Shown here one piece after another: positions 11,520-16,084 of a DNA stretch of 39,408 nucleotides; the first letter of the stretch is position 1; each line of letters begins with the position of its first letter. Source of the stretch: a virus (lineage: Duplodnaviria > Heunggongvirae > Uroviricota > Caudoviricetes); the IMG/VR virus record IMGVR_UViG_2917849834_000006, positions 1 to 39,408 of that record; one strand, 5' to 3'. A program made the position numbers and the translations under genes. The notes beneath the pieces are model-generated. The model did not search any database, was not told where the DNA came from, and saw only the letters and a list, made by a program, of their open reading frames with translations.

Positions 11520-12515
11520 GTGACCGTGAGAGCACTACTGACCCCTGAAATTGCCCCGCGCATGGGGATCGTATTGTTCAGGCCAGGTTCAGAGCTGATG
11601 CCCTTGTTTATGCAGGGGCGTGTCCTGCTGGAGCCTGAGCCGGAACGTTATTCATCTTTCGCCAGTGGTGCCGTTCCGGCGGCATCACAACCGCTGGCGG
11701 ATGATCCTGCCGTTCAGGCCGTGTTCCGCAATGAGGCAGTGATCCGTCGTGCTGGTGGCGTGGAATGTCTTGAAAGCTGGTTACTTCGTGAAAAAGGCTG
11801 CCAGTGGCCTCATTCCGACTGGCACAGCGAGAACATGACCACAATGCGACACGCGCCGGGCGCAATCCGTCTGTGCTGGCACTGCGATAACCAGCTGCGC
11901 GATCAGTTCACGGAACGGCTGGAATCAATGGCAACGGATAACTGTGCCCGCTGGGTGTTGTCTGTAGTCCGTCGGGATCTCGGTTTTGATGATAACCATG
12001 CCGTGACAATGCCGGAACTGTGCTGGTGGCTGATTCGTAATGACCTGGCGGATGCCTTACCTGAAAGCGCAGCCCGTAAGGCGCTGAGATTACCGAAACC
12101 TGTTGTGCCGTCTGTCACCCGGGAAAGTGACCTTGTGCCTTCGGTTCCTGCCACCAGCATCATCCAGGATAAAGCGAAAAAGGTGCTGGCGCTGAAAGTG
12201 GATCCGGAGTCGCCAGAGTCTTTTATGTTACGCCCAAAACGCCGCCGCTGGGTTAATGAAAAGTACACGCGCTGGGTTAAGACACAGCCGTGTGCATGTT
12301 GTGGAAAGCCTGCTGATGATCCCCACCACCTGATAGGCCATGGTCAGGGTGGAATGGGTACAAAAGCGCATGACCTCTTTGTGTTGCCTTTGTGCAGAAA
12401 GCATCACGACGAGCTGCATGCGGATACCGTGGCATTTGAAGAGAAGTATGGCTCTCAGCTGGAGCTGATATTTCGTTTTATCGATCGTGCGCTGGCAATT
12501 GGCGTATTGGCGTAA
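11520..12515 (+). CDS. DUF968 / Ref-like HNH-motif protein
   Basis: C-terminal cysteine/histidine cluster CACCGKPADDPHHLIGHG…CRKHHDELH; GTG start. Confidence 0.55.
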   Translation: MTVRALLTPEIAPRMGIVLFRPGSELMPLFMQGRVLLEPEPERYSSFASGAVPAASQPLADDPAVQAVFRNEAVIRRAGGVECLESWLLREKGCQWPHSDWHSENMTTMRHAPGAIRLCWHCDNQLRDQFTERLESMATDNCARWVLSVVRRDLGFDDNHAVTMPELCWWLIRNDLADALPESAARKALRLPKPVVPSVTRESDLVPSVPATSIIQDKAKKVLALKVDPESPESFMLRPKRRRWVNEKYTRWVKTQPCACCGKPADDPHHLIGHGQGGMGTKAHDLFVLPLCRKHHDELHADTVAFEEKYGSQLELIFRFIDRALAIGVLA

Positions 12516-12528
12516 GTGGAGAACGAGC

Positions 12529-13281
12529 ATGAACCTTGAAGCCTTACCAAAATATTACTCCCCAAAATCTCCAAAATTGAGCGATGACGCACCGGCGACA
12601 GGCTCAGGTGGTTTAACGATTACGGATGTGATGGCTGCGCAGGGGATGGTGCAGTCGAAAGCACCGCTTGGGTTTGCCTTATTCCTGGCAAAAGTTGGTG
12701 TTCAGGATCCTCAATTTGCGATTGAAGGTCTGCTCAATTACGCGATGGCACTGGATAACCCGACATTGAACAAATTGAGTGAAGAAACCCGGTTACAGAT
12801 CATCCCTTACCTTGTGAATTTTGCCTTTGCTGATTATTCCAGGTCTGCGGCAAGTAAGGCTCGCTGTGAGCATTGTGCTGGTACTGGATTTCATAATGTA
12901 TTGCGCGAAGTGGTGAAACACTCCAGAAGCGGGGAATCTGTTATCAAGGAAGAGTGGGTGAAGGAACTATGTCAGCATTGCCATGGTAAGGGAGAAGTCA
13001 GCACGGCTTGCAGAGGGTGTAAGGGTAAAGGCATTGTCCTGGATGAAAAAAGAACCCGGCTTCATGGCGCGCCTGTTTATAAGATTTGTGGGCGTTGCAA
13101 TGGAAATCGGTTTAGTCGTTTACCGACCACACTGGCACGACGTCATGTCCAGAAGCTGGTACCAGACCTGACTGATTATCAGTGGTACAAAGGATATGCA
13201 GACGTCATTGATAAACTGGTAACAAAGTGCTGGCAGGAAGAAGCATTCGCAGAGTTACAGTTGCAAAAAGTGACACGATAG
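12529..13281 (+). CDS. Late gene antiterminator Q-like protein
   Basis: Zinc-binding CxxC…CxxC cluster (CEHCAGTG…CQHCHGKG…CRGCKGKG…CGRC); position just upstream of the lysis cassette; likely start at 12529. Confidence 0.65.
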   Translation: MNLEALPKYYSPKSPKLSDDAPATGSGGLTITDVMAAQGMVQSKAPLGFALFLAKVGVQDPQFAIEGLLNYAMALDNPTLNKLSEETRLQIIPYLVNFAFADYSRSAASKARCEHCAGTGFHNVLREVVKHSRSGESVIKEEWVKELCQHCHGKGEVSTACRGCKGKGIVLDEKRTRLHGAPVYKICGRCNGNRFSRLPTTLARRHVQKLVPDLTDYQWYKGYADVIDKLVTKCWQEEAFAELQLQKVTR

Positions 13282-13472
13282 CTACATTTTTAATGATTTT
13301 CTCCGCATAATGCTTGCAATTTTCAAAAAATATGGTTAGCCTTAACGTAAAGATGGGCATTGAATGTCTAACTTTTATAAACCCGCTCAGGCGGGTTTAT
13401 GTTGCATGTTTTTTGAACAGGTGATATTGTGATCTCCATCACATTTGTGATGCTGGTTGAAAGGAGATCACC

Positions 13473-13676
13473 ATGCAAAATAGTAAACACACGACCAAGA
13501 AGGTCGTGGCAATTGCAAATAATATTGAGATTGGCTCAGTATTAGTGTCTGCTACTCAGAAAAGTATTCTGCTGAATACTGGTTGGGAATTACCAATTAT
13601 AGAAGTAGACAAGCTGTCTCATTCCTATGAGGTTTACATTAAACCTCGTCATAAAACCCTCCATCCTTCGCGATGA
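13473..13676 (+). CDS. Small hypothetical protein between Q and the lysis genes (moron position)
   Basis: 67-aa ORF with GGAG RBS, lower GC, followed by an intrinsic terminator. Confidence 0.45.
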   Translation: MQNSKHTTKKVVAIANNIEIGSVLVSATQKSILLNTGWELPIIEVDKLSHSYEVYIKPRHKTLHPSR

Positions 13677-13693
13677 TGAAAGTAAGATTTTTG

Positions 13694-13719
13694 AGGCCGC
13701 CTACGGGCGGCCTTTTTTA
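13694..13719 (+). terminator. Rho-independent terminator upstream of the holin gene
   Basis: AGGCCGCC-tacg-GGCGGCCT followed by a T6 run. Confidence 0.65.
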
Positions 13720-13805
13720 TGCGCACTTCTGCAAATCAGCGTTATAACCAGCTTCTTTCCCTTTTACTCGTTGCACTTCCGGTAACCGGAGGTGGGAATT
13801 ATGAA

Positions 13806-14141
13806 ATGCACAACGATCCTCATTCCTGGCCTGACTTACTTGAATTGTTACAGAGCTGGTGGCGTGGAGACACACCACTGGGCGCAGTGATTATGTCGAT
13901 TGTTATGGCTGGATTGCGCATTGCCTATTTTGGCGGTGGTGGTGGCTGGAAGCGAAAAACGCTCGAGATTTTGCTCTGTGGTGCTCTTACGCTGACTTTT
14001 GCATCCGCGCTTGAGTATGTCGGATGGCCTAAATCGCTTTCTGTTGCCATTGGTGGCGGCGTTGGGCTGATCGGTGTCGATGCTATTCGTGGGGCTGCAA
14101 TGCGAGTAATCGGTAACAAGTTTGGTAGCTCGAAGGAGTAA
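13806..14141 (+). CDS. Holin (lambda S-like, three TM segments)
   Basis: Three hydrophobic segments and charged C-terminus; immediately upstream of the endolysin gene; start uncertain (ATG at 13806 preferred over track start 13719). Confidence 0.7.
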   Translation: MHNDPHSWPDLLELLQSWWRGDTPLGAVIMSIVMAGLRIAYFGGGGGWKRKTLEILLCGALTLTFASALEYVGWPKSLSVAIGGGVGLIGVDAIRGAAMRVIGNKFGSSKE

Positions 14142-14144
14142 TTT

Positions 14145-14621
14145 ATGCAGGTGTTAAATTCCCAGCGTAAAGCTTTCCTTGATATGGTGGCATGGTCAGA
14201 AGGAACGGATAACGGGCGACAACCGACACGTAACCACGGTTATGACGTTATTGTCGGTGGAGAACTCTTCACTGATTACTCCGATCACCCTCGCAAACTT
14301 GTCACGCTAAACCCGAAACTCAAATCAACAGCTGCAGGCCGTTATCAACTTCTTTCACGCTGGTGGGATGCTTACCGCAAGCAGCTTGGGCTGAAAGACT
14401 TCTCTCCCAGAAGCCAGGATTCAGTGGCATTACAGCAGATTAAAGAGCGTGGCGCTTTACCGATGATTGATCGCGGTGATATCCGTCAGGCTATCGATCG
14501 TTGCAGCAATATCTGGGCGTCATTACCCGGTGCAGGTTACAGTCAGTATGAACATAAAATCGGTGACCTGATTGCCCGATTTAAAGAGGCTGGTGGGGTG
14601 GTAAATGAAGTTGAGTTATAA
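14145..14621 (+). CDS. R: Endolysin, lambda R-type lytic transglycosylase
   Basis: 158 aa; near-identical over most of its length to lambda R as recalled (…NQRKAFLDM…AWSEGTDNGRQ…YDVIVGGELFTDYSDHPRKLV…). Confidence 0.95.
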   Translation: MQVLNSQRKAFLDMVAWSEGTDNGRQPTRNHGYDVIVGGELFTDYSDHPRKLVTLNPKLKSTAAGRYQLLSRWWDAYRKQLGLKDFSPRSQDSVALQQIKERGALPMIDRGDIRQAIDRCSNIWASLPGAGYSQYEHKIGDLIARFKEAGGVVNEVEL

Positions 14622-15154: not shown

Positions 15155-15236
15155 AGCGGAAAAGGTCTGTGGCACAAACTGATGCTGCCATAATTACAGC
15201 CTGATGACTTGTGGAATGAAACATGTTGAACCTCCT

Positions 15237-15797
15237 TAATTGATGTGATTCGAGTGAGGAAGGCATTCTGTCCTTCTATAGTGTCCAGTAAATCAAACAG
15301 GAAGCTTGTCTCACGTGTGAGACAAGCCTCTCCATTAGCGAGTTGTATTGATTACAACTCTTCAAAGAGTTCATTACTGGGTAGATGAAAATAGTTTCAC
15401 GACGAATGGAGGAGACTATGTCGGTGGCTTCTTCATTGGAGTACATATGCTCCCTCGAACCTCAAAAGCATGCCGAGTTCGCGGCTGCCGCCATACCACG
15501 ACTGACCCGTGTTGAAGCTCCGTAATTGATGTTATTCGAGTGAGGAAGGCATTCTGCCCCCCTATACTGTCCAGTAAATCAAACAGGAAACTTGCCTCAC
15601 GCGTGAGACAAGCCTCTCCCATCAGTGAGTTGTATTGATCTCGACTCTTCAAAGAATTCATTACTGGGTAGATGAAAATAGTTTCACGACGAATGGAGGA
15701 GGCTATGTCGGTAGCTTCTTCATTGGAGTACATATGCCACCACGAACCCCAAAAGCCTGCCGTGTTCGCGGCTGCCGCCATACCACAACTGACCCGT
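15237..15797 (+). repeat. Two diverged tandem copies of a ~286-bp unit (15237-15515 and 15523-15797), each with a long palindrome and an HNH-gene 5' end
   Basis: Direct comparison: about 90% identity between copies; copy 1 holds a 22-codon remnant MLPRTSKACRVRGCRHTTTDPC* (15447-15515), copy 2 holds the intact HNH start. Confidence 0.8.
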
Positions 15798-16084
15798 CAG
15801 GCTATTGCGAAAGCCACAAAAGTGAAGGCTGGAAGCAATACAAGCCAGGACAATCCCGTCATCAGCGCGGTTATGGTTCGAAGTGGGACGGTATCCGCGT
15901 GCGCGTCCTGAAGCGTGACAAAGGTTTATGTCAGTTATGTCTGCGTGCTGGTGTGGTGCGTGAGGCGAAAACCGTTGACCACATAATTCCTAAAGCGCAT
16001 GGCGGCACAGATTCAGACAGCAATCTGCAGAGCCTGTGCTGGCCGTGTCATAAGGCGAAGACGGCTCGTGAACGGCTGAAGTAA
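15734..16084 (+). CDS. HNH endonuclease (packaging-associated)
   Basis: HNH motif …DHIIPKAHGGTDSDSNLQSLCWPCHKAK…; directly upstream of the terminase small subunit; ATG at 15734 with GGAG RBS. Confidence 0.85.
   Translation: MPPRTPKACRVRGCRHTTTDPSGYCESHKSEGWKQYKPGQSRHQRGYGSKWDGIRVRVLKRDKGLCQLCLRAGVVREAKTVDHIIPKAHGGTDSDSNLQSLCWPCHKAKTARERLK

Follow-up and report, generated by a model that had tools for sequence, protein, structure and literature searches.

The stretch analysed here, called the window in what follows, is a DNA of 39,408 nucleotides (nt) from a virus of the class Caudoviricetes (IMG/VR virus record IMGVR_UViG_2917849834_000006). The subject is the interval at 13282-13805, which separates the antiterminator gene Q from the holin gene; the holin is the first lysis gene and is followed by endolysin and spanin-type genes. 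The interval has a guanine-plus-cytosine (GC) content of 38-39% against about 50% in both flanks, and it consists of two parts: a lambda-type late-control unit at 13314-13403 and a low-GC cassette at 13402-13719 that carries an open reading frame (ORF) of 67 amino acids (aa). The explanation that best covers the whole, and that is held with somewhat more confidence than doubt, is that two transcription units are stacked here. One would be a Q-dependent late-control cassette, and the other an autonomous moron cassette with a promoter that is overlapped by a CRP-like site. The features of the interval and the two genes that enclose it are listed below in their order along the DNA.

12529-13281, plus strand: Q antiterminator gene of the Q-lambda family, 250 aa (PF03589, E 1.6e-53; solved lambda Q structure, PDB 7ubm_Q, E 1.3e-38; start as called by the Prokaryotic Genome Annotation Pipeline (PGAP) in E. 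coli ECCHD184).

13314-13342, plus strand: predicted late promoter pR', with -35 TTGCAA (13314-13319), 17-nt spacer TTTTCAAAAAATATGGT (13320-13336) and -10 TAGCCT (13337-13342).

13349-13357, plus strand: predicted pR' start A13349 and sigma-dependent pause element AAAGAT, then GGG, placed by alignment with lambda and by the relatives.

13377-13403, plus strand: putative first late terminator, tR'-like, with a 10-bp stem, a 4-nt loop and the tail TTTATGTT (-16.2 kcal/mol).

13402-13430, plus strand: predicted sigma-70 promoter of the cassette, with -35 TTGCAT (13402-13407), 17-nt spacer, TGa extended -10 (13422-13424) and -10 TATTGT (13425-13430).

13426-13474, plus strand: outer inverted repeat ATTGTGATCTCC / GGAGATCACCAT, 12 nt at 92% complementarity, enclosing the Shine-Dalgarno (SD) sequence GGAG (13463-13466).

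13428-13443, no strand assigned: palindrome TGTGATCTCCATCACA with the CRP consensus core TGTGA-N6-TCACA, lying over -10/+1 of the cassette promoter, its centre about 2.5 bp upstream of the predicted +1.

13438-13451, plus strand: predicted 5'-terminal stem-loop of the cassette mRNA, AUCAC-AUUU-GUGAU, with A13438 as the predicted start; supported by covariation.

13473-13676, plus strand: 67-aa ORF, phrog_25981 (profile match E 1e-49, and homologues), basic and predicted to be all-beta, ending HPSR-TGA-TGA.

13693-13719, plus strand: putative second terminator GAGGCCGCC-tacg-GGCGGCCTT with a T-run (stem 13693-13714; -19.7 kcal/mol).

13774-13794, plus strand: hairpin CACTTCCGGT-a-ACCGGAGGTG over the holin SD GGAGGTG (-16 kcal/mol, z -2.6).

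13806-14141, plus strand: holin gene of the lambda S family (PF05106, E 5.5e-28; start as called by PGAP in ECCHD184).

An initial annotation of this DNA had reported four elements between Q and the holin gene, namely a hairpin with a T-run (about 13379-13414), a 9-bp inverted repeat, the 67-aa ORF and a strong terminator (13694-13719), and it had expected the late promoter and the Q-utilisation site in the same place. All four lie where they had been put. The first hairpin turned out to have a perfect 10-bp stem and to occupy the position of the first late terminator of related phages, the strong terminator has a 9-bp stem with a T-run, and a promoter that aligns base for base with lambda pR' was located in the expected region. 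Three elements are additions to that description: the late promoter with its pause element (13314-13357), the second promoter (13402-13430) and the perfect TGTGA-N6-TCACA palindrome (13428-13443).

As to the late-control unit, Q proteins of the family PF03589 are termed Q-lambda in a paper that also describes the Q late cassette in general (PMC9388147). In the window, a Q-lambda gene lies directly upstream, a sigma-70 promoter is followed by a -10-like pause element and GGG, and two intrinsic terminators stand beyond it. The layout of the promoter region is TTGCAA-17-TAGCCT-TAACGT-AAAGATGGG in the window and TTGACT-17-TAAATT-TGACTC-AACGATGGG in lambda, and the two align base for base; the relatives carry AACGATGGG at the position of the pause element. 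It is AACGAT at +1 to +6 that forms the sigma-dependent pause element of lambda, and the Q-binding element of lambda is located between the -35 and the -10. By every feature that can be tested on the sequence, the late-control unit is thus a member of the Q-lambda cassette family. Where transcription from pR' would start, pause and terminate is predicted by analogy.

Within the interval, only a piece of 75 nt (13306-13380), which holds pR', is common to other phages. It was found in 29 phage records, and it is common to SfV, mEp460, Ayreon, Stx2c-converting phages, SKA5, sal3 and the quuQ/ydfT region of Qin in E. coli K-12. SfV, mEp460, Ayreon, the Stx2c-converting phages and Qin resemble the window in a Q gene of 753 nt, in a pR' piece that is 74-85% identical and in a terminator at the same position. 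Among the relatives with the same Q (SfV, Ayreon, an Stx2c phage, SKA5 and sal3), the pR' spacer TTTTCAAAAAATATGG is nearly invariant. This is unusual for a spacer, and it fits the view that the spacer is a candidate Q-binding element.

The Q protein itself contains four CXXCXGXG motifs and gives a sub-threshold match to the DnaJ central domain (31.2 bits, with the cut-off at 32.7). Compared with lambda Q, it has an insertion at residues 121-159, and this insertion brings two of the motifs as an extra pair.

The first terminator hairpin, ATAAACCCGC-tcag-GCGGGTTTAT at 13377-13400, is complementary at 10 of 10 positions and has a z score of -4.4 for its folding energy. A simple terminator scan did not list it because the tail is an interrupted T-tract. 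All relatives have a hairpin and a T-run at the position of 13377-13403, with stem sequences that differ from one to another, and the records of Ayreon and SfV carry a terminator annotation there. With the hairpin 28 nt downstream, the leader RNA from pR' would be about 52-56 nt long and would be the counterpart of the 6S RNA of lambda. A comparable short RNA is StxS, the pR'-to-tR' RNA of Shiga toxin (Stx) phages (PMC7547250). The likeness is one of anatomy: in the window, too, a short RNA would be expected from a constitutive late promoter and would end just downstream in the lysogen. StxS was described for another phage.

The resemblance to lambda comprises the PF03589 Q, the AA(C/A)GATGGG at +1 to +9, the terminator after it and the lambda-S-type holin downstream. 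There are several differences. The predicted leader RNA has about 55 nt as opposed to 194 nt in lambda, the -10 of the window is TAGCCT, and its Q of 250 aa has the extra CXXCXGXG pair. In addition, a gene cassette and a second terminator precede the holin in the window, and the annotated orf-64 of lambda is unrelated to the ORF found here.

Homology with the relatives ends at about 13380 and restarts at about 13787, and the sequence in between (13381-13786) is not common to them. What the relatives carry in this slot differs from the window: orf47 and a methylase in SfV and Ayreon, an 86-aa ORF in SKA5 and sal3, and in none of these phages the phrog_25981 cassette. A direct comparison of the 67-aa ORF with lambda orf-64 and with SfV orf47 likewise gave no homology. 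The full interval is carried by 32 of 5426 complete E. coli genomes at about 98% identity, and PGAP annotates the ORF there as a hypothetical protein.

A homology search of the 67-aa protein, which had been proposed with the initial annotation, was carried out and shows a real protein family that is already catalogued as phrog_25981 and is uncharacterised. The window protein aligns over residues 1-67 of the 67-position profile, and all 10 aligned homologues match this profile as well. A word-indexed search recovered only two clusters, from Citrobacter prophages, at 79% identity. An exhaustive profile search added seven members that are more distant and 61-82 aa long; together with those of a second indexed search, the clusters number 16. 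The homologues are 31-79% identical and have in common the motifs L.TGW.(I/L)P and SH.YEV and a C-terminal HPSxW. Against the Citrobacter genes, the ratio of nonsynonymous to synonymous substitution rates (dN/dS) is 0.33-0.48 for the core outside the fast-evolving N-terminus. A peptide-pattern scan of representative genomes found no relative. The family members of 82 aa (L024, L147 and L148) are over-extended gene calls, as their annotated ATG falls inside the CRP-like box and the stem-loop; when the start is moved to an internal ATG, which has an SD of its own, the protein shortens to about 68 aa and aligns with the rest of the family.

In every locus with visible flanks, the gene lies between Q and the lysis genes. 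The Q genes upstream represent all three families, PF03589, PF06323 and PF06530, and the holins downstream are of several types. Most of them are directly upstream of the holin, and in the Citrobacter loci a DNA methylase comes in between. The fixed place ahead of lysis cassettes suggests either an accessory factor that is expressed in the lysogen or a function linked to lysis.

The product is modelled as a small, basic, beta-rich soluble protein. AlphaFold2 prediction from an alignment of 10 sequences gave an all-beta model with a predicted local distance difference test score (pLDDT) of 73.6, and prediction from three sequences was poor (pLDDT 59). Searches of the 67-aa protein against Pfam, NCBIfam and PADLOC returned nothing significant; the best matches, one family member each, were L31 type B (E 0.03) and NifT (E 0.08). 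A sequence search of the PDB with the family profile gave no match, and no DNA-binding fold or domain was detected. The suggestion in the initial annotation that this is a slot for toxin morons thus stands for its second half only: the ORF has low GC, is missing in phages that share this Q and pR' and is bracketed by a predicted promoter and a terminator, whereas no similarity to a toxin was seen. At the level of sequence the cassette is a moron, namely a gene that close relatives do not have, with its own putative promoter and terminator and with deviant GC.

A conserved hairpin is also present inside the ORF (CACGACC-aagaa-GGTCGTG, 13490-13508), over the codons for TTKKVV. It was scored by the scan as terminator-like on the minus strand and is kept in the Citrobacter genes; conservation of the protein alone may account for it.

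The region that leads into the ORF was compared among 13 loci, which form about seven independent groups. All 13 leaders have TTGnnn, a gap of 16-17 nt and TAnnnT in the same place, and their spacers otherwise differ. Positioned 6-7 nt past the -10, again in all 13, is a purine that opens a hairpin of 5-8 bp, and an SD with ATG follows 35-43 nt after this purine. In the window, the leader from the predicted start to the ORF has 35 nt and includes a good SD. The promoter was missed by the consensus scan because its -35 matches at only three of six bases.

The hairpin begins at nucleotides 1-3 of the predicted transcript in every leader. Covariation supports it as an RNA structure: 98.5% of the cells in the alignment are paired, three pairs show compensatory changes (A-U to G-C), none of 500 shuffles reached the score, and in controls with a slid register pairing fell to 11-68%. 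Hairpins placed at the extreme 5' end are known to shield mRNAs from 5'-end-dependent decay and so to stabilise them, as in the ompA leader. The hairpin of the cassette resembles the ompA type in its position at nucleotides 1-3 and is kept by compensatory changes; here the 5' end is a predicted one. By analogy, the stem-loop would protect the cassette mRNA against decay. What computation establishes is the sequence elements, their conservation, the covariation in the stem-loop and the protein family encoded by the ORF; the start sites, termination, the role of the stem-loop and expression in the lysogen are predictions.

Overlapping the start of this stem-loop is the palindrome TGTGATCTCCATCACA, the only perfect match to TGTGA-N6-TCACA in the 39-kb window. 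The 22-mer at 13425-13446 agrees with the ICAP consensus AAATGTGATCTAGATCACATTT at 18 of 22 positions, and the lac CRP site does so at 15 of 22. The box is present in 11 of the 13 leaders, always with N6 spacing, with 9-10 of the 10 core bases and with all four key G/C bases. Its variants (CGTGA, TCACG and TCGCA) leave these four bases intact. Changes in the right half are matched by changes in the downstream stem-loop arm, but not in the left half. It was considered whether the two halves pair with each other in RNA, and this was rejected, as no compensatory change between the halves was found. The conservation of the left half in the absence of covariation therefore indicates a constraint at the DNA level, and the right half has a double role, in the box and in the stem-loop.

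Of the possible binders, CRP is the simplest candidate, because the site is constant while the adjacent protein, Q and the holin all change. The palindrome might instead be the operator of another dimeric regulator, either a phage protein or the 67-aa product itself acting in autoregulation. The box covers the core promoter as a classical operator would, the protein is small and basic, and box and ORF stay together in phages with different Q and holin genes. However, the half-sites match the CRP consensus exactly and remain constant while the protein falls to 31-45% identity. The variation that occurs (CGTGA and TCACG) is at positions tolerated by CRP according to the published ICAP consensus (PMC2504297). 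Moreover, the protein lacks any detectable DNA-binding fold, and the prophage window holds a single such site, so that a regulator other than CRP is considered rather unlikely.

The position of the box bears on the sign of the regulation. With its centre at about -2.5, it is not at one of the positions from which CRP activates (near -41.5, -61.5 or similar), and on the plus strand no -10-like element lies about 30-35 nt beyond the centre, nor does the minus strand have one at the corresponding position. Activation by CRP of a promoter downstream or on the minus strand was also examined and rejected, as a suitable -10 is missing from both strands at the distances of class I and class II activation. 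A box over -10/+1 is thus predicted to repress by occluding RNA polymerase. Repression of this kind is known: cyclic AMP (cAMP)-CRP bound over -10/+1 represses promoters such as cyaA P2. The TGTGA-N6-TCACA of the window likewise overlaps the core promoter, and the predicted site is closer to the consensus than most chromosomal sites. Regulation of the cassette promoter by CRP, and its negative sign, are inferences from these sequence features.

A different view is that the cassette has no promoter of its own. The ORF would then be the first late gene transcribed from pR' by Q-modified polymerase, the hexamers would be fortuitous, and the palindrome and hairpin would act at the RNA level in processing or stability. 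The other cargo of the slot lends this some credit, because in SKA5 and sal3 the 86-aa ORF begins immediately behind the first terminator and no promoter is visible for it; the hexamers are moderate matches, and the stem-loop clearly belongs to RNA. Chance hexamers are nevertheless difficult to reconcile with the alignment, in which the -10 keeps T1, A2 and T6 and the -35 keeps TTG in 13 of 13 leaders, at a spacing of 16-17 nt and despite differing spacers. The hairpin follows the -10 by 6-7 nt everywhere, even in the two lineages without a box, and RNA covariation is missing from the left half of the palindrome. An ORF that depends on pR' only is therefore an unlikely explanation.

The inverted repeat over the SD had been interpreted in the initial annotation as a hairpin that sequesters the ribosome-binding site and brings the small ORF under translational control. 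In one elaboration of that model, considered here, translation would be on in the short mRNA from the cassette promoter and off in the read-through RNA. The repeat itself is as described. GTGATCTCC (13429-13437) is perfectly complementary to GGAGATCAC (13463-13471) over 9 nt, and the 12-nt version extends over 13426-13437 / 13463-13474. The 3' arm contains GGAG, 6 nt before the ATG at 13473, and the minimum-energy fold of the long RNA uses the repeat. Because the predicted cassette start is downstream of the 5' arm, the hairpin could arise only in RNA that reads through from pR', and the two transcripts would differ in this respect.

However, 9% of the dinucleotide-shuffled versions of the 524-nt interval contained, somewhere along their length, a perfect 9-bp repeat whose loop measured 3-40 nt; by itself the repeat is only weakly beyond chance and is not strong evidence. 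Its arms also have other explanations, since the 5' arm coincides with the left half of the box plus the spacer, and the 3' arm with the SD plus ATCAC. Complementarity between the SD region and the box region is confined to the E. coli lineage and is absent in all other cassette lineages. In the folding predictions, the fraction of the SD-to-AUG segment that is unpaired is 0.40 in the long read-through RNA and 0.51 in the short mRNA. When the upstream 40 nt were shuffled, the mean was 0.43, and 34% of the shuffles were as low as the window. The accessibility of the SD is thus no lower than that of the shuffled control, and translational control by this hairpin is judged to be quite unlikely. 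In five of the 13 lineages the long RNA was less accessible than at least 95% of the shuffled-upstream controls, so a weak and general effect of transcript type on SD accessibility may exist.

The idea that the ORF is untranslated and that its transcript, from the cassette promoter to the terminator, functions as a small RNA of about 280 nt borrows its appeal from the outline (promoter, 5' hairpin, strong terminator) and from a protein to which no function could be assigned, and it is most improbable: the protein motifs are kept at 31-53% identity where DNA similarity is gone, the SD is at a proper distance in every lineage, the dN/dS of the core is below 0.5, and a scan of 12400-14600 against Rfam (E up to 1) returned only sub-threshold chance matches and no family at threshold.

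The second terminator has a 9-bp stem with seven G-C pairs and a z score of -5.4. A stem of the type AGGC(T/C)GCC-N4-GGCGGCCT with a T-run follows the ORF in 12 of the 13 lineages, and its conservation exceeds that of the protein. The motif AGGCTGCC-N4-GGCGGCCTTTT occurs in at least 120 IMG/VR viral contigs, with varying loops and in unrelated flanking contexts, some of which are holin leaders without the ORF. The stem was also considered as an element specific to the cassette, for example the 3' end of a small RNA, and this was rejected, as the family ORF is upstream in none of the 121 occurrences listed. By these comparisons it is a widespread, generic terminator of enterobacterial phages. 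With 19 fixed bases, about one chance match would be expected by a rough estimate, and the recurrence of the motif is far above it.

Taken as a mechanism, the two stacked units would work as follows. RNA polymerase would start at pR' (+1 at about 13349) and pause at AAAGAT-GGG. Without Q, it would terminate at the hairpin at 13377-13403, with a 3' end at 13400-13404, and release a leader RNA of about 55 nt. The moron cassette would have been inserted into the variable slot between this terminator and the holin leader. From its own promoter, it would give an mRNA of about 280 nt (13438 to about 13719) with a 5' end protected by the stem-loop in its first 14 nt. cAMP-CRP bound over -10/+1 would occlude RNA polymerase, and expression from this promoter would occur mainly at low cAMP. 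As the transcript would end at the strong terminator at 13693-13719, the holin would be silent in the lysogen. After induction, Q-modified polymerase coming from pR' would read through both terminators and co-transcribe the ORF and the lysis genes, whatever CRP does.

Several observations weigh against this scheme of two stacked units. The -10 of pR' (TAGCCT) is weak and the U-tract of the first terminator is interrupted; in the lysogen, transcription from pR' may thus leak into the cassette to some extent. The -35 and -10 of the cassette promoter (TTGCAT and TATTGT) are moderate matches to consensus, and the promoter was not called by the consensus scan. A CRP site at about -2.5 is in an unusual position, and the palindrome could belong to another regulator. 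The RNA stem-loop imposes its own constraint on the right half and thereby inflates the apparent conservation of the box, and two lineages (L150 and L152) do not have the box. The generic second terminator may belong to the holin leader and not to the cassette. With either assignment, it is placed to keep the transcripts of the cassette, and whatever leaks through from pR', from reaching the holin. No match was obtained when three family members were compared by tblastn with 50,697 GenBank phage records. Furthermore, the E. coli lineage has TGA TGA (13674-13679) where the Citrobacter genes have TGG TGG AAG TAA (WWK) and most family members end in HPSxW; the conserved terminal Trp is absent because of two G-to-A changes, and the protein in this lineage may be impaired. 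Finally, start sites, termination, binding and expression at this locus are read from sequence and from analogy.

Compared with the morons of lambdoid phages (bor and lom of lambda, and stx in the Q-to-S slot), the gene has the same deviant GC, the same absence from close relatives and the same bracketing by promoter and terminator. It is located in the classical slot between Q and the holin and could also be expressed by late read-through. It differs in that its predicted product is a soluble protein of 67 aa, neither a toxin nor a surface protein, and in that its control region is conserved across three Q families. What is new here is this conserved layout of promoter, CRP-like box and 5' stem-loop, together with its fixed position across the three families. 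No paper on a CRP-linked moron between an antiterminator gene and a holin gene was found in the literature search.

The late-control part is textbook. Its value lies in annotation, as pR', the pause element and the two terminators can be placed to the base. If CRP controls the cassette, the locus would be a clear example of control of a prophage accessory gene by the catabolite status of the host, and its protein would be a candidate for a function expressed in the lysogen or linked to lysis. A more far-reaching and doubtful extension is a module gated by carbon status, in which cAMP-CRP would shut off a lysogen-expressed protein that modulates lysis timing, induction or a host process. Were this true, host nutrition would be coupled to prophage behaviour via a factor that is not yet described.

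Two further observations concern the DNA downstream of the cassette. The hairpin at 13774-13794 may limit translation of the holin in the way of the structure that precedes lambda S; in another frame, a second ATG is present at 13802, 4 nt ahead of the holin ATG at 13806. Beyond the lysis genes, a tandem duplication occupies 15214-15797, with a period of about 287 bp and copies that are 88-92% identical. It is situated between the end of the lysis genes and an ORF for an HNH endonuclease (15635-16084), and the second copy overlaps the start of this ORF.

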